This document shows positions 5,877-29,800 of a stretch of DNA of 32,000 nt, piece after piece. The DNA lies in NCBI RefSeq assembly GCF_002932875.1, contig NZ_PSWS01000036.1:56026-88025 (forward strand), given 5' to 3'. How positions within the stretch are numbered: the stretch's first letter is position 1; each line of letters begins with the position of its first letter. Below the pieces are notes generated by a model that did no database searches, was not told the origin of the DNA, and saw only the letters and a list, made by a program, of their open reading frames with translations. Source of the DNA: Rathayibacter tritici. Lineage in GTDB: Bacteria > Actinomycetota > Actinomycetes > Actinomycetales > Microbacteriaceae. The translations under genes and the position numbers were made by a program.

Positions 5877-7202
5877 TCAGGCGGCGGGGACGAGGTTCCA
5901 GCGGTCGGCCAGGATCTCGAGGCCCTTGTCGAACGTGGCCGACCACGCCGTGACGTCGTGGGCGCTGCCGGGCACCTCGATGTAGGTGGCGTTCATTCCG
6001 GCCGCGAGCGCCGCCGCGTGCAGGGTCTTCGCTCCGGGGAGGAAGGAGGCGTCGTTGGCGCCGACCCCGAAGATCGCGACGGTGCCGGTGTAGGGCGCGT
6101 TCTTCGCGAGGAGGCCGAGCGGCGTCGCGGCTTTGTAGGCGGCCGCGTCGCCGCCGAAACCCTGCGCGATGGTGGCGGCCTCGCTGCCGAGCGTCGGCGC
6201 GAGCTCGCCCGAGGCGTCGATGATGTTGCCGAACAGTGCCGGGAAGCCTGCGCCGAGCTGGATCGCGCAGGTTCCGCCCTGCGAGAGGCCGCCGATCGCC
6301 CAGTGCTGCGCGTCGCCGAGTACCGGGAGGTTGGCGCGGATCCAGTTCGGGACGTCGACGGTGAGGTAGGTGGCCGATTTCCCCATCGGCGAGTCGATGC
6401 ACATCGTGTTCGTGTTCGGGTCGCCCAGCTGGTCGGGCGAGACGACGATCGGCGCGAGGCCGGCGTGCGCGGCGGCGTAGGTGTCGAGGGCCTGCTGGAG
6501 CTTCTCGGTCGAGAGCGGGTCGGAGGGGGAGCCGGGCTGGCCCGAGAGCATCACCATCACCGGCAGGAGCGGCGGGGCCGCGGTGAGAGCTGCGGGCGGG
6601 AGATAGACCACGGCGTCGCGGGCGGGGAATCCGGAGGCGGTGGCGGGGATCGCGACGCTCGAGACCGAGCCCGCGGCAGGCATCCCGGGGGGCGCGATCC
6701 AGGTCGCGAGGTCGGCGTGCGGGCCGCCCGGGACGACGGCGAGGACGTCGGAGTCGGAGTAGGCGCTGATCCCGAGCGCGCTGCGGACCGTCGGGTACTG
6801 GCCGAAGTCGATGTTGATGCTCATCGCGGCGGTCGCCACGACGAGCACCGCGACGCCGAGGGAGGCGAGCACACCCCGTACGCGCCGACGGCGGATCGCC
6901 TGCACGAGCACGACGAGGGCGACGGCGACGCCGCCGAATCCGAGACCGATCCAGAGGCGGGTGATCGGGGTGAAATCGACGCCGAAGGGGCCGTCGGATT
7001 CGCCGACGAGGGCGGCGAGGGCGATGCCGACGAGAAGGCCCAGGACCAGGAACGCGACGGCGACGGCGCCGCGGCGGATGCGGCCGGAGCCGCGGGAGCG
7101 GATGTGGACCGCGAGCAGGAGGAGCAGCGCGGCGGCGGCGAGCGCGTAGACGGAGACGACGAGGACGCCGGAGACGAGGCTCAGGTCGAGGAAAGTGGTC
7201 AT
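5877..7202 (-). CDS. Membrane-anchored alpha/beta hydrolase (esterase D / mycolyltransferase-like family)
   Basis: The first ~130 aa carry 4 TM helices. An esterase domain follows, with nucleophile elbow GGLSQGG and a C-terminal GSAHDV His. Confidence 0.75.
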   Translation of the reverse strand: MTTFLDLSLVSGVLVVSVYALAAAALLLLLAVHIRSRGSGRIRRGAVAVAFLVLGLLVGIALAALVGESDGPFGVDFTPITRLWIGLGFGGVAVALVVLVQAIRRRRVRGVLASLGVAVLVVATAAMSINIDFGQYPTVRSALGISAYSDSDVLAVVPGGPHADLATWIAPPGMPAAGSVSSVAIPATASGFPARDAVVYLPPAALTAAPPLLPVMVMLSGQPGSPSDPLSTEKLQQALDTYAAAHAGLAPIVVSPDQLGDPNTNTMCIDSPMGKSATYLTVDVPNWIRANLPVLGDAQHWAIGGLSQGGTCAIQLGAGFPALFGNIIDASGELAPTLGSEAATIAQGFGGDAAAYKAATPLGLLAKNAPYTGTVAIFGVGANDASFLPGAKTLHAAALAAGMNATYIEVPGSAHDVTAWSATFDKGLEILADRWNLVPAA

Positions 7203-7507: not shown

Positions 7508-8502
7508 GCCGTGGAGTCGCCGTCGTCACCGGAGGCACGGCCGGGTTGGGACGCGCGACGGTCCGTGAGCTGGCCTCCCGCGGCTGGGACGTCGCCGTGC
7601 TGGCGCGCGGCGAGGACGGCCTCGCGGCCACTGTCGCCGAGATCGAGCAGAAGGGCCGGCGTGGGCTGGGTATCCCGACGGATGTGGCCGACCGCGAGGC
7701 CGTCGAGTCCGCTGCGGATCGGGTCGAGGCCGAGCTCGGTCCGATCGAGCTGTGGGTCAACGACGCGATGGTCGGCGTGTTCGGCGAGTTCCTCTCGACC
7801 GAGCCGGCCGATTTCGAGCGCGCGGTGGGCGTGAACTTCTTCGGCTTCGTCAACGGCACTCGCGCGGCGCTCTCGCGAATGACTCCGCGCGACCGCGGGC
7901 ATGTCATCCAGGTGGGCTCCGCGCTCGCGCACCGGGGCATCCCGTTGCAGGCGGCCTACTGCGCCTCGAAGTTCGGCGCGCGCGGCTTCACCGAGGCCGT
8001 CACCGCCGAGCTCCTGCACGCGAAGAGCCGCGTGCGGCTGTCCGAGGTCGACATGCCGGCGCTCAACACCATTCAGTTCAACTGGGTGAAGTCCCAGCTG
8101 CCGCACCACCCGCAGCCGGTGCCGCCGATCTACGAGCCGGAGGTGGGTGCGATCGCGATCGCCGATGTGGCCGACACGCCGCGCCGCCGCACCTGGGTGG
8201 GCGAGCCGACCGCGGGCACGATCCTCGGCGACCGCTTCGCCGGCCGCTTCATGGACTGGTACCTCGCCCGCAACGCGTTCGACGGCCAGCAGGCTGCGGA
8301 CAAGACCGAGCCGATGCTGCCGAACAACGTCTACGAACCGGTCCCCGGCGATCACGGTGCGCGCGGCCTCTTCAGCGACCGCGCGCACACGATGACGCCG
8401 CAGATCTGGATGATCCGCCACCGCGGTCTCAGCTACGCGGGGGCCGCAGCGGCCCTCGCCGCCGGAGCCGTAGGTGTCCTCTCCGCCCTGCGGAGGAGGT
8501 GA
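7504..8502 (+). CDS. SDR-family oxidoreductase with C-terminal membrane anchor
   Basis: TGGTAGLG cofactor motif, catalytic YCASK (YxxxK). The C-terminal stretch LSYAGAAAALAAGAVGVLSAL is followed by RRR. Confidence 0.85.
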   Translation: MSRGVAVVTGGTAGLGRATVRELASRGWDVAVLARGEDGLAATVAEIEQKGRRGLGIPTDVADREAVESAADRVEAELGPIELWVNDAMVGVFGEFLSTEPADFERAVGVNFFGFVNGTRAALSRMTPRDRGHVIQVGSALAHRGIPLQAAYCASKFGARGFTEAVTAELLHAKSRVRLSEVDMPALNTIQFNWVKSQLPHHPQPVPPIYEPEVGAIAIADVADTPRRRTWVGEPTAGTILGDRFAGRFMDWYLARNAFDGQQAADKTEPMLPNNVYEPVPGDHGARGLFSDRAHTMTPQIWMIRHRGLSYAGAAAALAAGAVGVLSALRRR

Positions 8503-8504
8503 GC

Positions 8505-9962
8505 GTGGTCGACGCCATCGTCGTTGGAGCGGGACCGAACGGCCTCGCCGCCGCGGTCACCCTCGCGCGAGCCGGGCTCGCGGTCACCGTCCTCGAGCGC
8601 AACGAGACGATCGGCGGCGGCGCGCGCACGGCCGAGCTGACGCTGCCCGGATTCCACCACGACGTCTGCTCGGCGGTGCACCCGATGGCGCTCGCGTCCG
8701 GATTCTTCCGCGCCTTCGGGCTCGACCGACGCATCGAGCTGGTCGTCCCCGAGATCTCCTACGCACATCCGCTCGACGGGGGTCGCGCGGGCATCGCCTA
8801 CCGCGACCTCGACCGCACGGCCGAGGCGCTGGGCCGCGACGGGGCGGCCTGGCGGGCGCTGATGGGGCCGCTCGCCGAGCGGGCCGACCGGGTGGCCGGC
8901 TTCACGAACGATGCACTGCTGCGGATCCCGACCGACCCGAGCGTGCTGATCCGTTTCGGACTGCGGGTGCTCGAGCAGGGCACGCCCGTGTGGAACCTGC
9001 GTTTTCGGGAGGAGGTCGCCCCGGCGATGTTCTCCGGGGTCGCGGCGCACTCGATCCGCCCGATGCCCAGCCCGTCGACGGCCGCCGCGGCCCTGGCGCT
9101 CGGCGCCTACGCCCACGCGCGGGGCTGGCCGGTTCCGGTCGGCGGGAGCCAGTCGATCGTCGACGCGCTCGCCCACGACCTGCGAGTGCACGGGGGCACC
9201 ATCGAGACCGGCGTCGAGGTGACCTCGCTCGCGCAGCTGCCTCCGGCCCGCGCCGTCCTCGTCGACGGCACACCGACGGCGCTACTCGCGATGGCGGGCG
9301 ATCGCCTGCCCGCCGCCTACGCCGCCGCCCTCCAGCGCTTCCGCTACGGCAACGGCGTGGCCAAGGTCGACTTCGCCCTCGACGGCCCCGTGCCGTGGAC
9401 GAACCCCGAGCTCGCCCGCGCGGGCACGCTGCACGTCGGCGGGAGCCGCGCCGAGATCGCGGCGGCCGAGCGCGACGTGAAGCGCGGCCGGCACAGCCGC
9501 AGCCCCTACGTTCTCGTCGCTCAACCCTCGATCGCCGACCCGACCCGGGCGCCCGAGGGCAGGCACGTGCTCTGGACGTACACGCACGTCCCGCGGTACT
9601 CGCCGGCCGACCAGCAGGAGGCGATCACCGCCCAGATCGAGCGCTTCGCCCCCGGGTTCCGCGACCGCGTGCTCGCCGCCTCCTCGATGACCGCCCGAGA
9701 CATGCAGGCCTACAACCCCAACTACCTGGGCGGAGACATCGCCGCCGGAGCCGCGAGCGTGGCGCAGCTGCTCTCCCGGCCGGTCCCCACGACCGACCCG
9801 TGGCGGACACCGGCGAAGGGGCTGTACCTCTGCTCGTCGTCCACGCCGCCCGGACCGGGCGTGCACGGTATGGCCGGTTGGCACGCCGCGCGCAGTGCGC
9901 TGCGACACGAGTTCGGGGTGAGCGAGTCGCCGGACCTCTCGCCCGAGGCGAGCCCGGTCTGA
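8505..9962 (+). CDS. NAD(P)/FAD-dependent oxidoreductase, phytoene-desaturase (CrtI)-like
   Basis: N-terminal dinucleotide fold VVGAGPNGLAAAVTLARAGLAVTVLERNETIGGG and ~485 aa length. SD GGAGGAGG lies just upstream. An alternative GTG at 8499 overlaps the SDR stop. Confidence 0.8.
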   Translation: MVDAIVVGAGPNGLAAAVTLARAGLAVTVLERNETIGGGARTAELTLPGFHHDVCSAVHPMALASGFFRAFGLDRRIELVVPEISYAHPLDGGRAGIAYRDLDRTAEALGRDGAAWRALMGPLAERADRVAGFTNDALLRIPTDPSVLIRFGLRVLEQGTPVWNLRFREEVAPAMFSGVAAHSIRPMPSPSTAAAALALGAYAHARGWPVPVGGSQSIVDALAHDLRVHGGTIETGVEVTSLAQLPPARAVLVDGTPTALLAMAGDRLPAAYAAALQRFRYGNGVAKVDFALDGPVPWTNPELARAGTLHVGGSRAEIAAAERDVKRGRHSRSPYVLVAQPSIADPTRAPEGRHVLWTYTHVPRYSPADQQEAITAQIERFAPGFRDRVLAASSMTARDMQAYNPNYLGGDIAAGAASVAQLLSRPVPTTDPWRTPAKGLYLCSSSTPPGPGVHGMAGWHAARSALRHEFGVSESPDLSPEASPV

Positions 9963-10037
9963 GGAGCCACCATCGCCGTCGCCGGCCTGCCAGGCTGGGA
10001 GCGGCCTCAGCCCCACCACTTCACGAAGGAGTCCGCG

Positions 10038-12041: not shown

Positions 12042-13565
12042 GTGCACGAACACCACGTCCGCGTTCACCGCAGCGAGGAGGAGCTTCCCCGACACGGGCA
12101 GCTCGCCCACGCGCTCGCCGAGGTTGCCGCCGATCCGGTCGAGATCGATGCCGAGGTCGCCGAGATGGTGGTCAACCGCGTGATCGACAATGCCGCCGTC
12201 GCCACCGCATCGCTCCTGCGCCGCCCCGTCGTCGCCGCCCGCGCTCAGGCGCTCGCGCACCCCGCCTCCATCGGCGGGCAGGGGTCGGTCGTCCTCGGCG
12301 TCGATCCGGCCCGCCGCGTCTCGCCGGAGTGGGCGGCCTGGGCCAACGGAGTCGCCGTGCGCGAGCTCGACTACCACGACACGTTCCTCGCGGCCGAGTA
12401 CTCGCACCCCGGCGACAACATCCCTCCGCTGATCGCCGTCGCCCAGCACGCCGGTATCGGCGGTGCGCAGCTCGTGCGCGGCATCGTCACCGGCTATGAG
12501 GTCCAGGTCGACCTCGTCCGCGCGATCAGCCTGCATCAGCACAAGATCGACCACGTCGCGCACCTCGGCCCGTCGGCCGCCGCCGGGATCAGCACACTGC
12601 TCGGCCTCGATGTCGCGACGACGGAGCAGGCGATCGCGCAGGCGTTGCACACCACGACCGCCACCCGGCAGTCGCGCAAGGGCGAGATCTCGAGCTGGAA
12701 GGCGTACGCGCCGGCCTTCGCCGGGAAGATGGCGGTCGAGGCGGTCGACCGGGCGATGCGCGGCGAGACCAGCCCCTCGCCGATCTACGAGGGCGAGGAC
12801 GGCGTGATCGCCTGGCTGCTCGACGGCGCCGAGGCGAGCTACGACGTGCCGCTGCCCGATCGCGGTGAGGCCAAGCGCGCGATCCTCGACACGTACACGA
12901 AGGAGCACTCGGCCGAGTACCAGGCCCAGGCGCTGATCGACCTCGCCCGCCGCCTGCACCGCACGCACCCCGAGGCCGCCGATCCGGAGCGCGTGGAGCG
13001 GATCGTCCTGCACACCTCGCAGCACACCCACGTCGTGATCGGTTCGGGCGCGAACGACCCGCAGAAGTACGACCCGAGCGCCTCGCGCGAGACGCTGGAC
13101 CACTCCGTGCCGTACATCTTCACGGTGGCGCTGCAGGATGGCGCCTGGCACCACGTGCACAGCTACGCCCCCGAGCGCGCCGCCCGCGCCGACACGATCG
13201 CGCTCTGGCACCGGGTGAGCACCCGGGAGGACGCGGAGTGGACGCGCCGCTACCACTCCGCCGACCCGAGCGAGAAGGCGTTCGGCGCGCGCGTCGAGAT
13301 CCTGATGACGGACGGCACGACGATCGTCGACGAGATCGCGGTGGCGGATGCGCATCCGCTCGGGGCGCACCCGTTCAGCCGCGAGCAGTACGTCGCGAAG
13401 TTCCGCACGCTCGCATCCGACGTGCTCGAAGAGCCCGAGATCGAGCGATTCCTCGATCTCGCCCAGCGCCTGCCCGAGCTGACCCCGGAGGAGGTCGGCC
13501 GCCTCAGCGTGATCGCGGCGCCCGGCGTCCTCGCCTCCGTCGAGCCTCCGCGCGGCCTGTTCTGA
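12042..13565 (+). CDS. prpD: MmgE/PrpD-family protein (2-methylcitrate dehydratase-like)
   Basis: 507 aa with conserved blocks [23 protein letters not shown] and [30 protein letters not shown] precedes the GTG. No prpB or prpC is present in the window. Confidence 0.8.
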
Positions 13566-14718
13566 GCCCCCGCGCGGCCTGATCCGGTCCCTGACCCGGC
13601 TGTTCCGGTCGCTCACTCGGCAGGATGACGCGCACGAGGAGCCCGCCCTCCTCGCGGGCCGTGAGTGTCAGGCGGCCCCCGTGGGCCGCGACGATCCGCG
13701 AGACGATCGCCAGGCCGAGACCGGTGCCCGTGTGGCCCCCATCCGTGCGGCGGGTGCGGGTACCGCCCCGCACGAACGGCTCCAGCAGGGTCGGCAGCGT
13801 CGTCGGGTCGATCGCGGAACCGCTGTTCTCGACGGTGACGACCGCTCCCTCCGCGCTCTGCTCCGTCCGGAGCACGACGAACCCCGCCGAAACGTTGTGC
13901 ACGATCGCGTTGTGCAGCAGGTTCGTCATCAGCTGGAGTAGCAGCGACGTGGATCCGAGTGCGGAGCACGGCTCGACCTGCAGGCGGAGGGAGACGCCGC
14001 CGCGCTCGGCGAGGGTGAGGACGCTGTCGCGTGCCTCCTCCGCGAGCAGCGACAGATCGAGGGTCTCCGCCTCGGGTACGGGGCGGTCGGCCCGACTCAA
14101 CTGCAGGAGGGCCTCGACCAGGTCGATCGAGCGGGCGGTGACGGAGGACAGATCAGCGAGCAGGTGGTCCATGTCGGGGGACGTGTCGCGCCGGGCGACG
14201 TCGAGCATCGTCTTCGTGATGGTCAGCGGCGTGCGGAGCTCGTGCGAGGCGTTCGCGGCGAACCGCTCCTGCTCGCGGACGTGCGCCTCGGTCTGCTCGA
14301 GCATCGCGTTGAAGGCCTCGGCCAACTCGTCGAACTCGTCCCGCGACGGCATGTCCGCGACCCGGTGCGAGTAGCCGTCCGCGGCGACCAGCCGGGCGAC
14401 GCGGGTGAGCTCGTCCAGCGGCGCGAGGATCCTCCTGGCCAGGAGCCAGCCGCCGACGGTCCCGGCGATCAGGAGGAGCACGATCACCCCGGCGGCGACC
14501 GGAACGAAGGCGCTGAGCAGCTCGGTGCGGTTGGGGACGAAGATCTGCTCGTTCGTGCGCTGCGAGTACGAGACGAAGTACTCGTCGGTGATGTAGCGCA
14601 GGAGGAAGAGTGACATCGCCCCCAGAAGCCCGGTGACCGCCAGCCCGAGCAGCAGGACGTAGCTGAGCGTCAGGCGCGTGCGGATGCTGATCGAGCGAGG
14701 CCGACGGGCCGGCGCCAC
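13504..14718 (-). CDS. vanS: Sensor histidine kinase, VanS-like
   Basis: Two N-terminal TM helices flank a ~30-aa loop. HAMP domain, H-box [11 protein letters not shown] box LLHNAIVHN and G box GTGLGLAIV are present. The GTG start lies 1 nt after the vanR stop. The last ~37 codons are low-complexity and overlap the prpD 3' end. Confidence 0.8.
13548..13581. repeat. 12-mer CCGCGCGGCCTG duplicated at a 22-bp offset, straddling the prpD stop codon
   Basis: Copies at 13548-13559 and 13570-13581. The prpD TGA is at 13563-13565. Confidence 0.85.
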
Positions 14719-14719
14719 G

Positions 14720-15412
14720 TCAGCTCCGCCGGGTCTCGGCGGACTCGGGGGTGCGCGGCGCGATCCGGTAGCCCGAGCCGGGCACGGTGCCGATCAGCGA
14801 CGGGTCGGGGAGTCGCTTGCGCAGGCCGGAGATCGTGATCCTGATCGCGTTGGTGAACGGATCGGCGTTCTCGTCCCATGCCCGCTCCAGCAGCTCCTCG
14901 GCGCTGACGACACCGCCGTCGGCCTCCGCGAGGACGTGCAGGACGGCGAACTGCTTGCGGGTCAGGGCGACGAAGCGGCCGTCGAGGAAGACCTCGCGGC
15001 GGAACGGATCGATCCGCAGTCCATCCCGCTCGTACACGGGAGGACGGGCCTGCCTGCGGCGCCGGGCGAGAGCCCGCACGCGCAGGACGAGTTCGCGCAG
15101 CTCGAAGGGCTTCGTGAGGTAGTCGTCGGCGCCGATCTCGAAGCCGCTCTCCTTGTCCAGGAGGCGATCGGCCGCGGTGAGCATGATGATCGGCGTCCCC
15201 GAACCGGAGGCGACGATAGCGCGGGCGACATCGTCGCCCGACGGGCCCGGGACGTCACGGTCGAGGAGTGCGACGTCGTACACCGTCGTCTCCAGGAGCG
15301 CGAGCGCCTGGTGTCCGTCGGCGGCGATGTCCGACGCGATCGCCTCGAGCCGGAGGCCGTCGCTGATCGACCGGGAGAGGAAGGGTTCGTCTTCGACGAT
15401 CAGGACCCGCAT
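14720..15412 (-). CDS. vanR: OmpR/PhoB-family response regulator, actinomycete VanR-like
   Basis: Receiver MRVLIVEDEP...DVALLDRDVPGPSGD...MLTAADRL...DDYLTKPF plus a winged-helix C-terminus (TRKQFAVL...TVPGSGYRI). It strongly resembles Streptomyces VanR as I recall it. Start chosen at MRVLIVEDE (15412), not the 15460 ATG. Confidence 0.85.
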   Translation of the reverse strand: MRVLIVEDEPFLSRSISDGLRLEAIASDIAADGHQALALLETTVYDVALLDRDVPGPSGDDVARAIVASGSGTPIIMLTAADRLLDKESGFEIGADDYLTKPFELRELVLRVRALARRRRQARPPVYERDGLRIDPFRREVFLDGRFVALTRKQFAVLHVLAEADGGVVSAEELLERAWDENADPFTNAIRITISGLRKRLPDPSLIGTVPGSGYRIAPRTPESAETRRS

Positions 15413-15503
15413 CGGTGAACCGTAGACCGCGCAGGCTGCCATCCCTCGTCTGCGGCGCATCCCGATCCGTCGCTGTCGTGCCGGGGCGGCAGGGCGCAGG
15501 ATG

Positions 15504-16112
15504 TCACGTGATCGGGAAGTCGAAGTAGTGGTCGGGAAAGGGCTCGCCGGCGAGCGTGTAGTGCCACCACTCCTGCGGATACGGGTGGAAGCCGCTGTCG
15601 AGCATGATGGCGCAGAGGATCCGCCGGTTGTCCGCGGCGACGGGCCCTACCTCCTCGGTCGCGTGATGCGAGGTCTCGTCCATCAGATCGTGCCGACCGC
15701 CCATGTCCAGCAGCAATCCGCTCGCGGAGTCGACGAGGGTGAGATCGAGCGAGCCGCCGCGGGTGTGCCCCGAGGAGCAGGCGATGTAGCCCTGCTCGAG
15801 CATTGCGGCGCGGCTGATGCGCGGGTGGAAGACGCTCTTGGCGCGCGGGCACTCCGGCTCCTGCGCCCACCGGATGAAGTGGTCGACGGCGCGCTGAGGG
15901 CGGTAGGCGTCCCAGACGAGCAGCCCCAGTCCGCGCTCGGCGGCCCGGCCCTGCGCCTCCTGCAGCGCCGCCGCCACCGCCGCGGTCGTCACGACCCGAT
16001 CGGTTGCATATCCGTCGACCGGGCCGCCGGTGAAGTTATCGGAGCCGGCGTACTTCGCGTCCCAGAGCACGGAGTCGACGGCGTCGTCGAGGTAGACGAA
16101 TCCCGGGCTCAT
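15504..16112 (-). CDS. vanX: D-alanyl-D-alanine dipeptidase VanX
   Basis: Motifs WDAKYAGSDNFTG, WDAYRPQRAV, SGHTRGGSLDLTL and EWWHY, with the C-terminus YFDFPIT. The ATG overlaps the ligase stop (ATGA). Confidence 0.92.
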   Translation of the reverse strand: MSPGFVYLDDAVDSVLWDAKYAGSDNFTGGPVDGYATDRVVTTAAVAAALQEAQGRAAERGLGLLVWDAYRPQRAVDHFIRWAQEPECPRAKSVFHPRISRAAMLEQGYIACSSGHTRGGSLDLTLVDSASGLLLDMGGRHDLMDETSHHATEEVGPVAADNRRILCAIMLDSGFHPYPQEWWHYTLAGEPFPDHYFDFPIT

Positions 16113-17140
16113 CGGGTCATCGCCAGCTGGACGCTGCGGTCGATCAGGTCGGAGACGCCGAGGCCGGCGGCGGCCATCATCCGGGGGTACCGGCTGTAGG
16201 AGGTGAACCCGGGCAGGGTGTTGACCTCGTTCAGGACCACGCGCCCATCCTCGAGCAGGAACATGTCCACGCGGGCCAGGCCCCGGCAGCCGAGCGCCCG
16301 GTACAGCGCTTTCGCCCGCTCCTGGATCGACGCCCGCTGCGCCTCGGGGAGGTCGGCCGGGACGGTGATGGAGGAGTTGACCGACCCCTTCTCCGGCTCC
16401 GCCTCCTGGTGGATGCGGAAGAGCCCGTGCTCCAGGCGGATCTGGTCCACCTCGCCGACGACCAGGTCGTCTCCGTCGCCGAGGACGGCGCAGCCCACCT
16501 CCGAGCCGAGCACCTGCTCCTCGATCAGCACCTTCTGGTCGTACTGGCGGGCAAGGGCGATTGCCTCGTCGAGGCGCTCGGCGGACTCGACCTTCGTGAC
16601 TCCGAACGAGGAGCCCGAGCGCGCCGGCTTCACGAAGACGGGGAAGCTCAGGCTGGCCGCATCGACGCTGTCGCCCGGGTGCACGACGGTGAACGCCGGC
16701 ACGGGCATGCCGGCCTGCGCCGCGACGGTGTAGGCGAGCGACTTGTCCATGCACACCACCGAGCCCTGGATGTCGCAGCCGACGTAGGGGACGCCGGAGA
16801 GTTCGAGCAGGCCCTGGATGGAGCCGTCCTCGCCTCCCGTGCCGTGCAGGACGGGGAGGACGACGTCGACTCCGACCCGACGGAAGGTGCCCTCGTCCTC
16901 GACCAGCAGGCCGCGGGTCCCGCGGTCGGGGGAGATCACTGCGGCGCGGCCGTGCTGCGACTCCCAGTCGGGGCGCGGGCCCTCGCAGAGCCGCCACTCG
17001 CCGCGGCGGGTGATCCCGATCCACAGGGCGTCGTACCGGTCCGGGTCCAGTGCGGCGGTGATCTCGAATGCCGACTTGACGGAGACGTCGTGCTCCTCGG
17101 AGCAGCCGCCGAACAGGATGGCGATGGTCGTCTTAGACAT
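16109..17140 (-). CDS. vanA: D-alanine--(R)-lactate ligase, VanA/VanB type
   Basis: 343 aa of the Ddl family. The block EVDQIRLEHGLFRIHQEAEPEKGS...ITVPA and the C-terminus RVDMFL..GRVVLNEVNTLPGFTSYSRYPRMMAAAG match my recollection of VanA, including the His-containing omega-loop. Confidence 0.9.
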   Translation of the reverse strand: MSKTTIAILFGGCSEEHDVSVKSAFEITAALDPDRYDALWIGITRRGEWRLCEGPRPDWESQHGRAAVISPDRGTRGLLVEDEGTFRRVGVDVVLPVLHGTGGEDGSIQGLLELSGVPYVGCDIQGSVVCMDKSLAYTVAAQAGMPVPAFTVVHPGDSVDAASLSFPVFVKPARSGSSFGVTKVESAERLDEAIALARQYDQKVLIEEQVLGSEVGCAVLGDGDDLVVGEVDQIRLEHGLFRIHQEAEPEKGSVNSSITVPADLPEAQRASIQERAKALYRALGCRGLARVDMFLLEDGRVVLNEVNTLPGFTSYSRYPRMMAAAGLGVSDLIDRSVQLAMTR

Positions 17141-18113
17141 GGGTGGTGGTCCTCTCGTGAGCCACGCAGAGCGAGAGCGTCGTCTCGATGATCTGGTGAA
17201 GGGTGCGGGTGGTGAAGTAGGCCAGGTGGGGAGTGACGACGACGTTCGGCATCGCGACCAGGCGCTCGAGGGAGCGGTGGGGGAGCGGCCGGCCGGAGTG
17301 GTCGACCGAGAAGTAGCCCTCTTCGCCCTCGACGACGTCGAGAGCGGCGCCACCGAGCCGGCCGTCCTCGAGGGCGGCGAGCAGCGCGTCCGTGTCGACC
17401 AGGCCGCCGCGACCGGTGTTGACCACGAGTGCGCCCGTCCGCAGTCGGTCGATCCGCTCGGCGGTGAGGAAGTGGTGGGTTGTGTCGGACAGGGGCAGGT
17501 GCAGGGTGAGCACATCGCTCGCGGCCAGCGCTTGCTCGAGCGGGACTCGCTCCGTGCCCTCGGGCGCCGGGCCGGAACCGCCGACGATCAGCACGCGGCA
17601 GCCGAAGGGGCGCAACCGCTCGGCGACGGCGCAGCCGATGCGCCCGCCGCCGATCACCGCCACGGTGACACTGCGCAGCTCCCGGCCTCGCGTGTCGGGC
17701 GCGCGGAAATCGTGCCGGGCGACGGCGGCGAGAGTGGGCCGGGCGTTGCGCAGGGCGAGGAGGATCAGCATGACCGTGTGGTCGGCGACTCCGTCGGGCT
17801 CGTACCCGACGTTCGCGACGGTGATGCCGAGCGCGGCGGCCGCCTCGACGTCGAGGTGATCGACGCCGATACTCCGGGTGATGAGCGAGCGCACTCCGTT
17901 CGCGGCGAGGGCGTGCAACGTCTCCGCGGTCACGGCGCTCACGTGGCTGACGCTGACGCAGGGCGTCCCGACCGCCAGGGCCGCGCTCACCGGGCTGACG
18001 GGGACAGCCTCCACCCGGCAGCGCACGGGGTAGCGGCGCGACGCCTCCGCAATGGCACGCGCTTCTTCACGATCGCACCCGAAGAAGGTGATCGCCTGGT
18101 CTGTCTCGAACAT
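17133..18113 (-). CDS. vanH: D-specific 2-hydroxyacid (D-lactate) dehydrogenase VanH
   Basis: D-isomer 2-hydroxyacid dehydrogenase fold (VAVIGGGRIGCAVAERLRPFGCRVL, ALDVVEGEEGYF, MPNVVVTPHLAYFT). Its 3' end overlaps the ligase start by 8 nt. Confidence 0.9.
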   Translation of the reverse strand: MFETDQAITFFGCDREEARAIAEASRRYPVRCRVEAVPVSPVSAALAVGTPCVSVSHVSAVTAETLHALAANGVRSLITRSIGVDHLDVEAAAALGITVANVGYEPDGVADHTVMLILLALRNARPTLAAVARHDFRAPDTRGRELRSVTVAVIGGGRIGCAVAERLRPFGCRVLIVGGSGPAPEGTERVPLEQALAASDVLTLHLPLSDTTHHFLTAERIDRLRTGALVVNTGRGGLVDTDALLAALEDGRLGGAALDVVEGEEGYFSVDHSGRPLPHRSLERLVAMPNVVVTPHLAYFTTRTLHQIIETTLSLCVAHERTTTHV

Positions 18114-18276
18114 GACTCAAGACAACGCGATCCCCCGTTGCGTCCCCGTCGCCCCTTCCCGATACGCCGACAACACCCCCCGCCCGCCCCAGCCCCCTCC
18201 TCCCCCGCCGCGAGATGCCACTTATGTACGCGACACGCCGGGCGGGGCGCACCCACGTGGCATCTTGCGGCAAAGG
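18114..18276 (-). promoter_or_regulatory. vanH upstream region / putA downstream region with a G-quadruplex motif and a 9-bp inverted repeat
   Basis: The sense (minus) strand carries G5-AGGA-G5-CT-G4-C-G3-C-G6 (plus-strand C runs 18176-18206). Inverted repeat AGATGCCAC (18213-18221) / GTGGCATCT (18257-18265). CCACGTGG palindrome at 18253-18260. Confidence 0.4.
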
Positions 18277-21200
18277 TCAGAGCAGGGAGTCGGTGAGGTG
18301 GTCGGGCGTGCCGAAGCGGTGGGCGGTGATCGAGACGGCTTGCTCGCGGAGGAAGGGCAGCAGTTCGAGGCGGCCGGCCTCGGTTGCCTCGCCGGCGTAG
18401 ACGGCGAGGTCGGGGCGTCCACCGGTCACGGCGGTGACCGTCGCGGCGGGGGCGCCCAGCAGGCGCACCCGTCCGGCGCCGTGGGCGCGCACCCGTGCCT
18501 CCCACGCCGCGTCGTCCTCGACCACCACGGCGCCCGCAGTCTCGGCGAGCGCGGCGGCGACAAGCGGAGGCAGTACCACAGCACTCGAGACGACCACGGA
18601 TGCCCGGGCGGTCGCCGCGGCGACGGCCACCCGGACGAGCGAGCCGAGCGGCTCCCCGTCGGCCAGGCGCACCAGCACGGCGGAGTCGTAGGGCAGGTGG
18701 CGGAACACGTTCCGTTCCGCCGCCAGCCCCGTCACGTCGCGGGGAGCGCCCGCGGCCCACGCCGCGGCGCAGCTGCGGGCAGTCCGCTCGACGCCGACGT
18801 ACTCCTGGGCCGAGAGTTCGCCGCGCGCCGCCGCGAGCAGTCGCGCGGCCGGGCCGACGACCGCGGCCGTCGCCTCCGACGGCGTCGCGCTCCACGAGCC
18901 CAGCCCGAGCAGGTAGTCCGGCCCGCCCGCCTTCGTGCCCGGCCCAACCGCCGACTTCTTCCAGCCGCCGAACGGCTGGCGCTGCACGATCGCGCCGGTG
19001 ATCCCGCGGTTCACGGAGAGGTTGCCGGCCTCGATCCCGTCGAGCCAGGTGCCGATCTCGTCCGGGTCGAGCGCGTGCAGGCCCGAGGTGAGCCCGTAGT
19101 CCACCTCGTTCACCAGCGCGATCGCCTCGTCGAGGGTCGCCGCCGTCATGATCCCCAGGATCGGCCCGAAGTACTCGGTGCGGTGGAAGTCGGAGCCGCG
19201 GCGCACGCCCTCGCGCACGCCCGGGCTCCACAGCCGGCCGGACTCGTCCAGCGTCCGCGGCTGCAGCAGCCAGGTCTCGCCGGCGCCGAGCGTCGTCAGG
19301 CCGCGCAGCAGCTTGCCCTCGGCCGGCTCGATCACCGGGCCCATCCGCGTCGCGGGGTCCGTCGGGTAGCCGACGGTGAGGGAGGAGACCGCGTCGAGCA
19401 GCTGCCCGCGGAACCGCGTCGAGCGGGCGACGGAGCCGACCAGCACCACGAGCGAGGCGGCCGAGCACTTCTGCCCGGCGTGCCCGAAGGCGCTCGCCAC
19501 GACGTCCTTCACCGCGAGGTCGAGGTCGGCCGAGGGGGTGACGATGATCGCGTTCTTGCCGCTGGTCTCGGCGAGCAGCGGGAGGTCGTGCCGGAAGGAG
19601 CGGAACAGCTCCGCCGTCTCGTAGGCGCCGGTGAGGATCACGCGGTCCACCGCGGGCGAGGCGATCAGGTCGCGGCCCAGCTCCTCCTCCGGCAGACGGA
19701 GCAATCGCAGCGCCTCGCGGGGGACGCCCGCCGCCCACAGCGCCTCGGCCACCACGGCGCCGCAGCGGGCGGTGGGACCGGCGGGCTTGAGCACCACGGC
19801 GGAGCCGGCCGCCAGCGCCGCGAGCACGCCTCCGGCCGGAATCGCGACCGGGAAGTTCCACGGCGGAGCGACCAGCGTCAGCGCGGCCGGGTGGAAGCGG
19901 GCACCGTCCACCGCGTCGAGTTCGAGCGCGCGCTCGGCGTAATAGTGCGCGAAGTCCACGGCCTCCGAGACCTCGGGGTCGCCCTGGTCGATCGTCTTGC
20001 CGCCCTCGGCCGCCATGACCTCCAGCAGCTCGGCGCGGCGCGCCTCCAGCTCGTCGCCGGCGCGGTGCAGGATGCGGGCCCGCTCGCCGGCCGGAACGTC
20101 GCTCCAGCCGCTGGCGCGCGCTCCGGAGAGCACCGACTCCAGCTCGCCGCGGGTGCCGATCGTGGCGGCCTCGATCGCGTCGGCGCCCGCGCGGGAGGAG
20201 GGAACGCGCGCGAGGATCGCCCCGGCCCACTCGCGGTTCGCAGCCACGGACGGGTCGGTGTCCGGGGTGCTGCGGAAGTCGCCGACGCCGGGGCGACCGC
20301 TCGCGGCGAACCGGTCGGCCACGCGATGCGCCGGGGGCACTGCCCCGTCGAGGGCGGCCACGGAGGCGCGGAACCGCTCCTCCTCCCGCGCGAACAGCGC
20401 CGGATCGGCCTCGAGCTCGAAGACGGCCGACATGAAGTTCTGGCTCGACGCGCCCTCCTCCAGCCGGCGGATCAGGTAGGCGATCGCCACATCGAACTCG
20501 GCCGGCGCGACGACCGGCGTGTAGAGCAGGAGCGAGCCGACCGTGCGGCGCACCGCCTCCGCCTGGCCCTGCGCCATGCCGAGCAGCATCTCGTACTCGA
20601 TGCCCTCGCGGACGCCGCGGGTACCGGCGAGCAGCCACGAGTAGGCGATGTCGAAGAGGTTGTGGCCGGCGACGCCGACCCGAACGGCGCGGATCCGCTC
20701 CGGGTGCAGGGCGTAGCCGAGAACGCGCTTGTAGTTCGTGTCCGAGTCCTGCTTGCTGCTCCAGGTCGCCAGCGGCCAGCCGTGCACCGACGCCTCGACC
20801 TGCTCCATCGGCAGGTTCGCGCCCTTGACCAGGCGCACCTTGATGGCGGCGCCACCGCGGGCACGGCGGGCCGCGCTCCACTCCTGCAGGCGGATCATCG
20901 CCGACAGCGCGTCGGGGAGGTACGCCTGCAGCACGATGCCGGCCTCGAGGTCCGTGAACTCTGGCCGGTCCAGGATGCGGGTGAAGACCGCGATGGTGAG
21001 GTCGAGGTCCTTGTACTCCTCCATGTCGAGGTTGATGAACTTCTGCGGCGAGGAGGCGGCGGCCCGCGCGAACAGCGGCGCCAGCTCCTCGACGATGTCG
21101 TCGACCGCAGCGTCGAAGGCCCACGGGTTGTGCGGGGCGGTGCTCGAGGAGACCTTGATCGAGACGTAGTCGACGTCCTCACGGGCGAGGAGGCGGTGGG

Positions 21201-21732
21201 TGCCCTCCAGGCGGCGGCGGGCCTCCTCCCGGCCGAGGACGGCCTCGCCGAGCAGGTTCATGTTGAGCCGCACGCCGTCGCGGCGGATCGCGGCGATCGC
21301 CGGGCCCAGGCGCGAGTCGGTCGCGTCGATGAGGAGGTGGCCGACCATCCGCCGCAGCACCCGGCGCGCGATCGGCACCACGACGTCCGGGAGCAGCGGC
21401 GCCATCACGCCGCCGAGGGCGACGGCCGCGCGCATCGGAGCCGGGAGGAACCCGGGCACGCCGCCCGCGATGGCCTTCAGCGCCGCCGCGGCCACGCGGG
21501 TGTCCTCGGGGCGGACGACGCCGTCGACGAAGCCGACCGTGAAGTCCAGGCCAGACGGATCCTTCAGCACGCCTGCCAGCTGCGCCCCGGAGGCGTCGGT
21601 GGGGATCGCGGAGGCCTCGCGCAGCCAGCGCCGGACCAGAGCAACGCTGTCGTCGACGAGGCGGGGGTCGACGGAGTCGGGAGCGGGGCCGGAGGTGGCG
21701 GGCGCGGAAGCGGGGCTGGCGAGATCCGTCAT
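18277..21732 (-). CDS. putA: Bifunctional proline dehydrogenase / L-glutamate-gamma-semialdehyde dehydrogenase PutA
   Basis: 1151 aa. The N-terminal half is proline-dehydrogenase-like. The C-terminal half is an aldehyde dehydrogenase with ETSGKNAIIV and the catalytic-Cys block FGHAGQKCSAAS. Confidence 0.93.
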   Translation of the reverse strand: MTDLASPASAPATSGPAPDSVDPRLVDDSVALVRRWLREASAIPTDASGAQLAGVLKDPSGLDFTVGFVDGVVRPEDTRVAAAALKAIAGGVPGFLPAPMRAAVALGGVMAPLLPDVVVPIARRVLRRMVGHLLIDATDSRLGPAIAAIRRDGVRLNMNLLGEAVLGREEARRRLEGTHRLLAREDVDYVSIKVSSSTAPHNPWAFDAAVDDIVEELAPLFARAAASSPQKFINLDMEEYKDLDLTIAVFTRILDRPEFTDLEAGIVLQAYLPDALSAMIRLQEWSAARRARGGAAIKVRLVKGANLPMEQVEASVHGWPLATWSSKQDSDTNYKRVLGYALHPERIRAVRVGVAGHNLFDIAYSWLLAGTRGVREGIEYEMLLGMAQGQAEAVRRTVGSLLLYTPVVAPAEFDVAIAYLIRRLEEGASSQNFMSAVFELEADPALFAREEERFRASVAALDGAVPPAHRVADRFAASGRPGVGDFRSTPDTDPSVAANREWAGAILARVPSSRAGADAIEAATIGTRGELESVLSGARASGWSDVPAGERARILHRAGDELEARRAELLEVMAAEGGKTIDQGDPEVSEAVDFAHYYAERALELDAVDGARFHPAALTLVAPPWNFPVAIPAGGVLAALAAGSAVVLKPAGPTARCGAVVAEALWAAGVPREALRLLRLPEEELGRDLIASPAVDRVILTGAYETAELFRSFRHDLPLLAETSGKNAIIVTPSADLDLAVKDVVASAFGHAGQKCSAASLVVLVGSVARSTRFRGQLLDAVSSLTVGYPTDPATRMGPVIEPAEGKLLRGLTTLGAGETWLLQPRTLDESGRLWSPGVREGVRRGSDFHRTEYFGPILGIMTAATLDEAIALVNEVDYGLTSGLHALDPDEIGTWLDGIEAGNLSVNRGITGAIVQRQPFGGWKKSAVGPGTKAGGPDYLLGLGSWSATPSEATAAVVGPAARLLAAARGELSAQEYVGVERTARSCAAAWAAGAPRDVTGLAAERNVFRHLPYDSAVLVRLADGEPLGSLVRVAVAAATARASVVVSSAVVLPPLVAAALAETAGAVVVEDDAAWEARVRAHGAGRVRLLGAPAATVTAVTGGRPDLAVYAGEATEAGRLELLPFLREQAVSITAHRFGTPDHLTDSLL

Positions 21733-22740: not shown

Positions 22741-22884
22741 GCCGACGGCGCCTGGAGCCGGACGGAGGGTCGGCTGCTCCGTGAGCGGTGAGAATGTCCC
22801 TCCACAGGGCCGATTCAGGGGGCGATTGTCCGGAACAGGACGATCCGCGGCCCCACTGTCAGTGGTCGCTGGTTCAATACTTAT

Positions 22885-24270
22885 ATGAGAGTACACGGAG
22901 TGACAGCGGCGGCGGAGGCGGTGCTCGGCGAGGTGCGCGCACGCGGTGACCGGGCTGCAGCGCTCGCCCGCTCGGCATCTCCGCTGCTCCTAGCGTCGGC
23001 CGAGGAGCTGTACGCCGGGTACCGCGTCGCGCTCGAGCGTCCGGAATCATTCGCCCGAGGGTCGGCGCCGCATGCTTCGAGCGAGCTCGCCGAGCGATCG
23101 ATCCGTGCCGAGTTCGCGGTCGCCCTCGGAGTGTCCGAGCGGGTCGCCTGCCGCGAGCTCGAGAACGCGCGGCTCCTGGTCGAGGATCTGCCGGCCACCC
23201 GCTCTGCGCTCGCCGAGGCGCGGCTGCGCTGGGAGGCGGGCCAGGCCGTGTGCGCGGTCGCGGCCACCCTGCCGCCGGGCTCCCGGGCGGAGTTCGACGC
23301 GCGGGCCGCCGATCTCGCTGCCCGGTCCACACCCACGCAACTGCGGCGCGCTCTGGCGAGGCTCCGCGAGGAACTCCACGAGCAGCCCCTCGCCGACCGT
23401 CACCGACGCGCTCGCGAGGACCGTGCGGTGTGGCTGAGCCCCGAGGTGGACGGCATGGCGACGCTCTGCGCCCTTCTCCCGGCGCCGGTCGCACTCGGGG
23501 CGTACGCGCGTCTCGACCGGATCGCCCGGATTCTCCGCGACGGTCCCGAGGGACGCGAGTCGGATGCCGAGGGACGCGAACCTGATGCCGGGAGCTCCCC
23601 CGTCCCGGGGCTCGACGGGGGAGACGAGCGCACCCTCGCGCAACTGCGGGCCGACGCCCTGGCCGACATCCTGTGCGATGCCGACGTCATCGGCACGATC
23701 CCCGACGAAGCCGGCGCCGATCGACCCGCTCCGACCCTGGTCCCGGGCGTCCGGGCCGAGGTGCGCGTCACCCTCGCCGCGAGCACCGCCTCCGGCCACG
23801 ACGACGCCCCCGCCGAGCTCGACGGCTACGGTCCGATACCCGCCGGCGCCGCCCGGAGCCTCCTCCCCGCGACCGTCACCCGGGTGATGACCGAGCCGCG
23901 CACGGGCGCCGTCCTCTCGGTCGGTCGCACCCGCCGACTCCCGCACCGTGAGCTGCGGCTCCTCCTCCAGCTCCGCGACGTGACCTGCCGGTTCCCCGGC
24001 TGCACCCGCTCCGCCAGCGGCGCCGAGGCCGACCACGTCGTCGAATGGCGCAACGGAGGCGGCACCGATCCCGGCAACCTCGCCAGCCTCTGCGTCGCCC
24101 ACCACCACGTACGACACGGCGATCGCTGGACCTACGTCCTCCACCCCGACGGCACCGCCGACTGGACCACCCCCACCGGACGCCGCATCACGACCCGGCC
24201 ACCGGCCCTCGAGGCGCGACCGCGATCAGGCCCCCGCCCGAGCTTCGACGACCGCCCGCCGCCGTTCTGA
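22885..24270 (+). CDS. DUF222-type HNH endonuclease (REP13E12-like family)
   Basis: C-terminal HNH nuclease block CRFPGCTRSASGAEADHVVEWRNGGGTDPGNLASLCVAHHHVRH after a long Ala/Arg-rich helical N-terminal region. An unusually AT-rich stretch (TTCAATACTTATATG) lies at the start codon. Confidence 0.8.
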   Translation: MRVHGVTAAAEAVLGEVRARGDRAAALARSASPLLLASAEELYAGYRVALERPESFARGSAPHASSELAERSIRAEFAVALGVSERVACRELENARLLVEDLPATRSALAEARLRWEAGQAVCAVAATLPPGSRAEFDARAADLAARSTPTQLRRALARLREELHEQPLADRHRRAREDRAVWLSPEVDGMATLCALLPAPVALGAYARLDRIARILRDGPEGRESDAEGREPDAGSSPVPGLDGGDERTLAQLRADALADILCDADVIGTIPDEAGADRPAPTLVPGVRAEVRVTLAASTASGHDDAPAELDGYGPIPAGAARSLLPATVTRVMTEPRTGAVLSVGRTRRLPHRELRLLLQLRDVTCRFPGCTRSASGAEADHVVEWRNGGGTDPGNLASLCVAHHHVRHGDRWTYVLHPDGTADWTTPTGRRITTRPPALEARPRSGPRPSFDDRPPPF

Positions 24271-24274
24271 TGCG

Positions 24275-24366
<92 letters not shown>

Positions 24367-24367
24367 C

Positions 24368-25900
24368 CTACGCCGCCAAGAAGCGGTCCGCCGTCCGCAG
24401 CGAGAGCGCCATCGTTGCGAGCGCCGGGTTCGCGATCAGCGAGCTCGGGAACACCGAGTTGTCGCACACCCACAGGTTCGGCACGTCGAAGCTGCGGCCG
24501 TCGGAGTCGACCACCGCGTCGCCCGCGTCGGTCCCCATCCGCACCGTACCGAGGGTGTGCGCCGTGCGCGCCAGCACACGGGTGCTCGTTGCGCCCGCCG
24601 CCTCCACGATCGCGGTCATCGTCCGGATCGCATGCCGGTCGATCGCCTCCTCGTTCGCGCCCGCCGAGAACGTGATGCGCGCCTTCGGCACTCCGTGCTC
24701 GTCCAGCTCGTCGGTCAGCTCCAGCCGGTTGCGGTCGGCGGGCAGGCATTCGGCGTTGATCCCCACCCCCGCGGCGAAGCGGTAGCCGTCGAGCGCGTCC
24801 ATCAGCTCGGCGCCCCACAGCCCGGCACCGCGGGCGAGGGTCGTGGCGTAGGTCAGCGGCATCACGCCGAGGCTCTGGATCAGGTAGCCGCCCACGAAGT
24901 CGGCGTCGGCCGGACGCACGGTGTCCTCGGTGATCGCGGAGGAGGGGTAACCGCGGTAGCCGCGCATCTCGCTCTCGAACGTCCCCCACACCTGCGTCGC
25001 CCCGTGCGCCAAGAAGTTCCGGCCCACCTGCCCGCTGCTGTTCGCGACACCCGTGTGGAGCAGGAGCCGAGGCGTCTCGACGCCGCCCGCGCAGAGGAAC
25101 AGGGCGGAGCAGCGCTGCCGGTGCTCCAGTCCACCGCTCGTATACACCACGGCGCACACCTGGCCCGCGGCGTCCAGCTCGATCCCGTGCACGAACGAGT
25201 CGGCGCGGATCTCAGCGCCGGCGCGCACCGCCTCCGGCAGGTAGGTCACGTCCATGCTCGCCTTCGCGCCGGTGCGGCAGCCCTGATGGCACTGGCCGCA
25301 GTTGACGCAGGCGGGACGGCCGTCGTCCCGCGCCCCGCTCAACACGGCGGCGGGCGCGTCGGTCGCGCGCATCCCGATCGCCGCGCAGCCCCGCAGCATC
25401 ATGTCGGCCGAGGCGTTCCGGGCGAGCGGGCCTTGAAGGTAGCGGCGCGTCGGGTCCCACGGGTACTCGGCCGGCCCCGCCACTCCGATCGACGCCTCGA
25501 CCCGCTCGATGTACGCGGTGAGCTCGGCGTGCTCGATCGGCCAGTCGCGGCCGACCCCCGAGTCGCTCCGCAGCCGCAGGTCGCGCGCGTCGGGGCGCGG
25601 CGTGAACGCCCCCCAGTGCAGCGTCGAGCCGCCGACCCCGCGGCCGCTGTTGTTCTGCCCGAAGGCGGTGGGAGTCCCGCCTCCGCTGAGGCGCTCCTGC
25701 ATCCAGTTGATCTCCACGGCCGCCGTCTCATCGGCCGTGTGCCCGAGCGGATCGACGTGCGGCCCGGCCTCGAGCGCCACCACGCGCAGCCCGCGAGCGG
25801 CGAGCACCGACAGGAGCGGAGCGCCGCCGGCCCCGGTGCCGATCACGATGGCGTCGACCGTCTCCTCCAGCGCGAAGCGGCGCATGCCGGTCGTGTTCAT
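24368..25900 (-). CDS. GMC-family FAD-dependent oxidoreductase
   Basis: N-terminal AIVIGTGAGGAPLL...ALEAG fold and C-terminal GMC blocks AHTLGTVRMG and NLWVCDNSVFPS. The ATG overlaps the upstream stop (ATGA). The rest of the 984-aa ORF in this frame is off-frame junk. Confidence 0.88.
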   Translation of the reverse strand: MNTTGMRRFALEETVDAIVIGTGAGGAPLLSVLAARGLRVVALEAGPHVDPLGHTADETAAVEINWMQERLSGGGTPTAFGQNNSGRGVGGSTLHWGAFTPRPDARDLRLRSDSGVGRDWPIEHAELTAYIERVEASIGVAGPAEYPWDPTRRYLQGPLARNASADMMLRGCAAIGMRATDAPAAVLSGARDDGRPACVNCGQCHQGCRTGAKASMDVTYLPEAVRAGAEIRADSFVHGIELDAAGQVCAVVYTSGGLEHRQRCSALFLCAGGVETPRLLLHTGVANSSGQVGRNFLAHGATQVWGTFESEMRGYRGYPSSAITEDTVRPADADFVGGYLIQSLGVMPLTYATTLARGAGLWGAELMDALDGYRFAAGVGINAECLPADRNRLELTDELDEHGVPKARITFSAGANEEAIDRHAIRTMTAIVEAAGATSTRVLARTAHTLGTVRMGTDAGDAVVDSDGRSFDVPNLWVCDNSVFPSSLIANPALATMALSLRTADRFLAA

Positions 25901-29075: not shown

Positions 29076-29203
29076 CGCGGCGACCGTAGCCGGGGGGAAG
29101 GTCGCCGGGCAAAACGGTGGCGGGATCTCCGGCGCAGCAGGCGCCCCGCGGCCACCGGTGTCCCGCATCCGCGGGTGCCCTGCGGCCACAAGTGCCCCGC
29201 GTG

Positions 29204-29233: not shown

Positions 29234-29349
29234 AGCGAGGTTGCGTGCATCTGCACGCGCTTGCGTGCTGCCCGCCGGGCGGGGGCTCCGGCTCCTACCG
29301 AACGGCCGGGCGGTGCGCCGACAAGTGACCTTGGGTGGGTCGGGCGAGG

Positions 29350-29798: not shown

Positions 29799-29800
29799 AT

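Follow-up and report, generated by a model that had tools for sequence, protein, structure and literature searches.

A probably functional, chromosomal vanHAXRS-type glycopeptide-resistance cluster between prpD and putA in Rathayibacter tritici

Among the characterised glycopeptide-resistance (van) systems, the vanRS/vanJ/vanK/vanHAX cluster of Streptomyces coelicolor is chromosomal and high in GC, belongs to an actinobacterial non-producer of glycopeptides, and is organised in four separate transcription units. The vanO cluster of Rhodococcus equi is likewise chromosomal in an environmental actinobacterial host, with vanHOX divergent from vanSR and extra open reading frames (ORFs) including murG, whereas the enterococcal vanA (Tn1546) and vanB clusters have the order RS-HAX together with vanY/Z/W genes and a transposon or integrative conjugative element backbone. 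In this study, we analyzed a 32,000-nucleotide stretch of DNA of the wheat pathogen Rathayibacter tritici from contig NZ_PSWS01000036.1 (hereafter, the window), in which a prediction made from the sequence alone had placed a complete vanH-ligase-vanX-vanR-vanS set between the catabolic genes prpD and putA. Of the 1741 Micrococcales genomes covered by a survey of Actinobacteria, <1% had van genes, in the combinations vanHAX, vanHAXRS, or vanHAXRSY, and Rathayibacter appears in its list of genus abbreviations (PMC8698665). Within the genus, a comparative study of 2020 reported vanHAX from Rathayibacter toxicus alone and stated that R. tritici, R. rathayi, and R. iranicus lack it (PMC7143919).

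From our comparison with these systems, we consider it likely that R. tritici carries a chromosomal, probably functional, and inducible D-alanyl-D-lactate (D-Ala-D-Lac)-type glycopeptide-resistance operon. It is an environmental van cluster of an already catalogued kind, sharing gene set, phylum, and order with the vanHAXRS sets of actinobacterial non-producers (Andreo-Vidal et al. 2021, PMC8698665), and it represents an unnamed type within that kind.

Gene content and comparison with known van systems

The ORF listing confirmed the five genes at 13504-18113, all on the minus strand: vanH (17133-18113; 326 aa), predicted to encode a D-specific 2-hydroxyacid (pyruvate to D-lactate) dehydrogenase; the gene for a VanA-like D-alanine--(R)-lactate ligase (16109-17140; 343 aa); vanX (15504-16112; 202 aa), for a predicted Zn-dependent D-Ala-D-Ala dipeptidase; vanR (14720-15412; 230 aa, N-terminus MRVLIVEDE), for an OmpR-family response regulator; and vanS (13504-14718; 404 aa, GTG start), for a membrane sensor histidine kinase. 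Gene starts were taken from the ORF listing with manual start placement, and vanR has an alternative upstream ATG at 15460. The junctions are exactly those originally described, with an 8-nt overlap of vanH and the ligase gene (17133-17140), a shared ATGA between the ligase gene and vanX (16109-16112), a 91-bp gap between vanX and vanR (15413-15503), and a spacing of 1 nt between vanR and vanS (14719); the overlapping junctions are indicative of translational coupling. The flanking putA (18277-21732, minus strand) is co-directional with vanHAX and vanRS, and prpD (12042-13565, plus strand) is convergent on vanS. All five proteins match their own Van families in NCBIfam with E-values of 1e-83 to 1e-171, so chance matches are not a concern, and for the products of vanH, vanX, vanR, and vanS these families were the best matches by a wide margin.

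The ligase scored 568.4 bits on the D_ala_D_lac equivalog model NF000206 (cut-off 550; span 1-341/342) and 490-522 bits on the VanA, VanB, VanD, VanF, VanI, VanM, VanO, VanA-Sc, and VanA-Ao2 models, all under their cut-offs of 650-775. Judged by these scores, the ligase belongs to none of the named Van ligase types. Among these types, its scores for VanD, VanI, and VanA exceed those for VanO and VanA-Sc, and the ligase is 63.6% identical to plasmid-borne VanA and 62.4% to VanB. Depsipeptide ligases are set apart from the Tyr-type Ddl (D-Ala-D-Ala) enzymes by His244, and the R. tritici enzyme keeps this residue (VanA numbering) inside the omega-loop motif FRIHQE. The block LFRIHQEAEPEKGS, quoted in the original prediction as a VanA-type omega loop, was found at residues 240-253; with the NF000206 score and His244, the VanA-type assignment stands. 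Alignment to Enterococcus faecium VanA (PDB 1E4E) is gapless over residues 1-341 (E 4e-142). The identity of an ordinary Ddl was ruled out by the family scores and His244, and in RefSeq the homologs from R. rathayi and R. agropyri are already annotated as D-alanine--(R)-lactate ligase.

The other two enzymes are more divergent from their family models. VanX scored 290.8 bits on NF033115 (cut-off 320), with DdpX next at 117 bits; its alignment to the VanX structure 1R44 is gapless at 50.5% identity, and it retains Arg71, the Zn ligands His116, Asp123, and His184, and the catalytic Glu181 at the same positions. VanH, with the Pfam domains 2-Hacid_dh and 2-Hacid_dh_C, matched NF000492 vanH_gen best (353 bits, E 1e-105; cut-off 540), whereas generic D-lactate dehydrogenase models gave ≤165 bits. 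It carries the NAD-binding motif GGGRIG and the motifs bearing the Arg and His of the Arg/Glu/His triad, the Glu having been judged by eye in the alignment.

The regulators point to another lineage than the enterococcal one. Over 219 aa, VanR shares 74% identity with S. coelicolor VanR (7LZ9, E 2.5e-102); it has the phospho-acceptor Asp51, and matched VanR-O best (359 bits; cut-off 505), compared with ∼100 bits on the enterococcal VanR types (VanR-A, 98 bits). VanS matched VanS-O best (279 bits; cut-off 720); it has HAMP, HisKA, and HATPase_c domains (Pfam), an H-box His at residue 159, two hydrophobic, putatively transmembrane segments centred near residues 23-35 and 73-89, and an outer loop of ∼27 aa (about residues 41-67). 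The sensor loop is near-invariant among species whose VanS is 75% identical overall. By homology, VanRS is of the actinobacterial/Streptomyces type.

The likeness to S. coelicolor therefore extends over the vanHAX core chemistry, VanR, and the plan of VanS (two transmembrane segments, a short loop of ∼25 aa, HAMP, HisKA, and HATPase). Unlike S. coelicolor, the R. tritici cluster is without vanJ and vanK, and its five genes run co-directionally, HAX then RS, rather than in separate units; moreover, its ligase is only ∼67% identical to the VanA-Sc-type ligases and does not group with them. Rathayibacter also differs in its peptidoglycan, which is of the B-type (diaminobutyrate). The best family matches of both regulators are to Rhodococcus equi vanO, yet the scores lie far under the vanO cut-offs (499 against 750 bits for the ligase, in addition to the regulator values above), and the R. 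tritici cluster has neither a divergent vanSR nor extra ORFs such as murG. With enterococcal vanA and vanB, it shares the three core enzymes, the collinearity of the ligase with VanA over 341 residues including His244, and the 8-nt vanH/ligase overlap. It differs in regulator lineage, in order, and in having none of the vanY/Z/W genes or the mobile backbone; the vanB plasmid locus (L091), for example, has an adjacent integrase. The order HAX-RS differs, as had been noted, from enterococcal RS-HAX and from the split S. coelicolor layout, but it is not special, since vanHAXRS is a common set in actinobacteria and is known from Micrococcales too (PMC8698665). Clusters with related ligases elsewhere were found to have divergent RS/HAX, convergent, or no adjacent RS genes. 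As judged from sequence, the closest characterised relatives are the regulators of S. coelicolor and Rhodococcus equi vanO, and the closest solved ligase is VanA.

The 8-nt overlap of vanH and the ligase gene is identical in the enterococcal vanA and vanB plasmid loci (L090 and L091, 4501-4508), and a soil actinobacterial cluster (L094, 6001-6004) has a 4-nt overlap instead. It may be a shared rare character, though very few loci were compared. In a phylogeny of 2024, the ligases of several Rathayibacter species stand at the stem of the VanA/B/D/F/M clade (PMC11273654). This position, the overlap, and the higher VanD, VanI, and VanA scores suggest a tentative reading, which we regard as rather unlikely, that Rathayibacter-type ligases are the closest surviving actinobacterial relatives (a stem group) of the clinical VanA/B/D/M/F clade, still accompanied by Streptomyces-type VanRS. 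Against treating this as settled, in our own neighbour-joining (NJ) tree the Rathayibacter clade formed a separate deep lineage whose sister group was unresolved (44% support). If the reading were true, plant-associated Microbacteriaceae would hold a snapshot of the vanHAX core just before its move to Firmicutes and the accompanying swap of regulators.

Distribution and descent at the prpD-putA site

To place the cluster within the genus, we surveyed one genome per species over a subset of Rathayibacter species, using PrpD as the query and then the contigs encoding related proteins. The full five-gene cluster was found between prpD and putA in R. tritici, R. rathayi (CP028129.1), R. iranicus NCPPB 2253 (NZ_QGDV01000015.1), and R. 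agropyri. At the same site, Rathayibacter sp. GCA_015351245 has intact vanH and ligase genes (68% and 75% identical, respectively) and a vanX stub of ∼100 aa (L088, 9033-9425), with no vanR or vanS. The site is empty in Rathayibacter VKM Ac-2630, VKM Ac-2754, and R. caricis DSM 15933; R. oskolensis has neither the van cluster nor putA, and in other Microbacteriaceae prpD is not adjacent to putA. The earlier proposal to check presence and absence at this site in sister genomes hence returned empty sites in three and filled sites in a derived clade, as expected of an old acquired cassette. The three empty-site genomes speak against conservation of the cluster at this locus throughout the family.

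In blastn comparisons with the empty-site genomes, homology ends at 13563-13569 and restarts at 18276-18277, and from these break points the inserted segment is placed at ∼13566-18276 (∼4.7 kb), starting right after the prpD stop. The empty-site spacers measure 14 bp in VKM Ac-2754 and 152 bp in VKM Ac-2630. The latter (L004, 11528-11679) consists of palindromic repeats of the type GGTCGAGTAGsCGC...TCTCGATACGCC. We considered whether this spacer is a scar of the van cluster and ruled it out, as it gave no alignment to the van ends; it resembles an intergenic palindromic repeat of the repetitive extragenic palindrome or miniature inverted-repeat transposable element kind (REP/MITE-like).

When the NJ tree of PrpD was rooted with two outgroups, the carriers came out as a single derived clade (89% bootstrap), below which the empty-site species diverge; an NJ tree of five flanking genes separated carriers and non-carriers with 99% and 95% support. 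All Rathayibacter ligases group together with 100% support, and the branching within this group, ((tritici, rathayi), (iranicus, agropyri)) inside the vanH-ligase-only strain, is that of the species tree. Synonymous divergence (dS) of the van genes is similar to that of the flanking genes, 0.14-0.31 against 0.15-0.18 for prpD/putA between R. tritici and R. rathayi, and 0.30-0.59 against 0.43-0.45 between R. tritici and R. agropyri. The ratio of nonsynonymous to synonymous divergence (dN/dS) is 0.08-0.31 over all five van genes and 0.10-0.17 in the flanks, and the GC content at third codon positions (GC3) is 0.90-0.95 in the van genes, as in the flanking genes. Given the carrier clade, the congruent ligase tree, the flank-like dS, the dN/dS values, and the host-like GC3, the simplest history is one ancient insertion followed by vertical descent under purifying selection, with partial decay in one lineage. 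The polarity of the gain depends on NJ trees of few loci from a subset of species, and we regard it as well supported but not proven. The original view of a composition matching that of the host, and of an old actinobacterial resident or an intra-phylum transfer rather than a recent import from Firmicutes, agrees with the trees, the dS and GC3 values, and the shared site.

The complete vanHAXRS sets in CP015515.1, CP028129.1, and NZ_QGDV01000015.1 contradict the claim that vanHAX is unique to R. toxicus (PMC7143919). The R. toxicus ligase gene is 1041 bp long and its product starts with MNTLTV (PMC4878776), which suggests a different ligase lineage and an independent acquisition.

Regulation, proposed mechanism, and alternative explanations

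Upstream of vanH, a block GGGGTGTTGTC-N5-TATsGGGAArGGGCGACG (18147-18179, minus strand) is kept in all four species with the full cluster but has degenerated in the vanH-ligase-only strain, a pattern that would fit a regulatory site (a candidate promoter or VanR target). A sigma-70 promoter scan gave no consensus match, and −10/−35 elements could not be assigned upstream of vanH; the upstream regions of vanH and vanR have in common only short GCGAC-type similarities, next to separate conserved blocks, and our literature search for a defined actinobacterial VanR site returned nothing usable. Directly upstream of the vanR ATG, TAC(G/A)GTT(C/T)AC is kept in four species, and in R. tritici a −10-like TACGGT (15419-15424) lies 6 nt from the ATG, which is suggestive of a leaderless, actinobacterial-type vanR promoter. 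The scan for intrinsic terminators was likewise negative, with no terminator-like site in the 91-bp vanX-vanR gap, and the gap folds no more stably than shuffled sequence (z +0.85), as does the vanH leader. Since the gap is without a terminator-like site or unusual structure, transcription could plausibly continue from vanHAX into vanRS and so provide positive feedback. Scans of the window for Rfam families and tRNAs gave no hits.

Ahead of the vanH promoter region, a long, near-perfect hairpin (18200-18276, minus strand; core GAGATGCCACTTATG; minimum free energy −47.9 kcal/mol, z −4.2) directly follows the putA stop and was recovered as inverted repeat I9 in the repeat search. R. tritici and R. 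rathayi have this hairpin, as does the vanH-ligase-only strain, in which an extra copy lies beside lysR, and it is not at the site in R. iranicus and R. agropyri; positions of the repeat are 2324-2338 and 6848-6903 in the vanH-ligase-only locus (L088) and 6895-6909 in R. rathayi (L083). The hairpin is probably a putA terminator or an insulator derived from a dispersed repeat.

In the mechanism that we propose, VanS, as a kinase that crosses the membrane twice and has a short outer loop, would respond to a glycopeptide, or to the change this causes in the cell wall, by phosphorylating VanR at Asp51, and phosphorylated VanR would switch on the vanH promoter. VanH would then convert pyruvate to D-lactate, the ligase would produce D-Ala-D-Lac, and VanX would remove the normal D-Ala-D-Ala pool, leaving peptidoglycan precursors that end in D-Lac and bind vancomycin poorly. 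The vanRS genes would probably have their own weak leaderless promoter in the 91-bp gap, with vanHAX read-through adding positive feedback. The cluster itself would have entered by a single insertion between prpD and putA in the ancestor of R. tritici, R. rathayi, R. iranicus, and R. agropyri and been inherited vertically since. What the sequences show directly is the gene identities, the catalytic residues, the site of insertion, the distribution, and the selection; induction, the arrangement of promoters, the synthesis of depsipeptide, and resistance as a phenotype are what we infer beyond this.

Several observations weigh against a functional and inducible operon. VanH, VanX, VanR, and VanS each score under the curated NCBI cut-offs for the named families, and they are therefore divergent members rather than orthologues of a named type. 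A recognisable promoter or VanR box could not be defined upstream of vanH or vanR, and the literature yielded no phenotype or expression data for R. tritici. The vancomycin-binding loop of S. coelicolor VanS is DQGWLLTNERGAVRATPGTVFLRSF (PMC7109055), and the R. tritici loop has no sequence resemblance to it. The prediction of a Streptomyces-type VanRS with a short loop of ∼30 aa is thus upheld for VanR identity, family matches, topology, and loop length, but not for loop sequence, and because of this difference the inducer is not predictable from sequence. The loss of vanR, vanS, and most of vanX in GCA_015351245 indicates that the cluster is dispensable. Moreover, R. tritici VanS has lost the ancestral stop codon: where the R. 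rathayi protein ends ...LPRA-TGA, the codon in R. tritici is CGA and 21 bp are deleted just downstream, and the result is an Arg-rich read-through tail of ∼35 aa (13504-13611) that reads antisense through the last 62 bp of prpD (13504-13565). The tail occurs in all R. tritici assemblies seen and not in R. rathayi, R. iranicus, or R. agropyri; the same sequence in independent assemblies argues against a sequencing error. It is located past the complete HATPase/kinase domain and is probably tolerated.

Conceivably, these features could mean that the locus is a cryptic or decaying relic, with genes that are intact in R. tritici, no longer induced or useful, and heading for loss. The remnant in the sister strain, the lost VanS stop, the promoter scan without a clear promoter, and the somewhat faster evolution of the van genes than of their flanks (dN/dS up to 0.31 against 0.10-0.17) would all agree with this. 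Nevertheless, five intact ORFs persist in four species, dN/dS is well under 1 for every gene including vanS, all catalytic residues and the near-invariant sensor loop are kept, and the VanS tail begins only after the HATPase domain is complete, for which we find a relic unlikely. A second alternative accepts a functional D-Ala-D-Lac operon and assigns VanS a signal other than the clinical glycopeptides, such as a different compound acting on the cell wall or a cue from the host or a nematode. It draws on the unlike loop (PMC7109055) and on an ecology of plants and nematode galls that is no known glycopeptide-rich niche. The inducer range of VanS also varies between types. Yet the output genes are sensible solely against D-Ala-D-Ala binders, VanR is 74% identical to the vancomycin-responsive regulator of S. 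coelicolor, and two transmembrane segments with a short loop are the plan of a glycopeptide-sensing VanS, and we judge such a signal to be quite improbable.

The idea of a cassette that was recently acquired by horizontal transfer and is still mobile, whether it came from a plasmid, a transposon, or Firmicutes, could appeal to enterococcal VanA being the best plasmid-borne ligase match (63.6%) and to the cluster GC of 0.70-0.72, slightly under that of putA and ppx (0.75-0.77). However, no plasmid relative exceeds 64% identity, by which a close mobile copy on a plasmid was ruled out. The repeat search over 13300-18400 found only chance-level repeats, with no terminal repeats, direct or inverted flanking repeats, or target duplication, and no transposase or integrase was detected among the window genes scanned. 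Together with the host-like GC3, the one insertion site in four species, and the divergence that tracks the flanks, this effectively refutes a recent mobile origin. A probably functional resistance operon of old standing is the reading that we retain. The original interpretation was essentially right, and we see a complete, non-mobile, ameliorated module that was acquired long ago within the phylum and lies among catabolic genes.

Neighbouring genes and significance

The host assignment of the window is clear, as its PrpD is 100% identical to R. tritici PrpD, and the sequence is 99.6% identical over 19.5 kb to the chromosome of R. tritici NCPPB 1953 (CP015515.1) and 100% identical to a contig assembled from SRR6799098. 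By Pfam domains, the neighbouring genes encode ZnuA, an ABC-3 transporter, a Fur-family regulator, an asparaginase, a major facilitator superfamily transporter, an esterase, a short-chain dehydrogenase, a cyclase-like protein, Ppx/GppA, PrpD, PutA, a LysR regulator, an alpha/beta hydrolase, LysE, a polysaccharide deacetylase, ribosomal protein S14, and DeoC. In the window genes scanned (8502-9963 and 24270-25897 were not directly scanned), no VanJ/K/Y/Z/W and no transposase or integrase domains were found, as had been predicted for the genes adjacent to the cluster. Glycopeptide biosynthetic genes had likewise been predicted to be missing, and none were found within the 32-kb window, in which all neighbours of the cluster have housekeeping, catabolic, or transport roles.

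A DUF222/HNH endonuclease ORF (22792-24270), past putA and lysR and before the hydrolase and LysE genes, is the nearest and the only gene of a mobile type among those scanned. It occurs in R. tritici and R. rathayi, not at that position in R. agropyri, and is probably a separate small insertion unlinked to the van cluster. Upstream of prpD, the Ppx/GppA gene of R. rathayi is nearly gone, with ∼40 aa still matching (L083, 13112-13516), and is intact elsewhere. At 29000-30500, the GC content dips to 0.67 around the ribosomal protein S14 gene, to which related loci add L33 and L28 genes, and positions 1-2831 carry the genes for ZnuA, the ABC-3 permease, and the Fur-family regulator; this combination suggests zinc-regulated alternative ribosomal proteins.

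The main text of the 2021 survey describes neither the prpD-putA insertion site, nor a gain-and-decay history in Rathayibacter, nor the R. tritici VanS tail (PMC8698665). The cluster reveals no new mechanism, and with genes that are not mobile it poses a low clinical risk. Our observations correct the published claim that R. toxicus alone in the genus carries vanHAX (PMC7143919). The neighbours and the non-mobile context support the initial suggestion of an environmental-reservoir cassette among housekeeping catabolic genes. An intact and selected operon, predicted to be of D-Ala-D-Lac type, in a clade of cereal pathogens would extend the environmental resistome by a reservoir associated with plants and nematodes. 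The chief value of the cluster, besides a possible stem position of its ligase relative to the clinical enzymes, lies in the natural series that the full cluster, the vanH-ligase remnant, and the empty site form within one genus, in which the cost and benefit of van genes may be followed in a host with B-type peptidoglycan.

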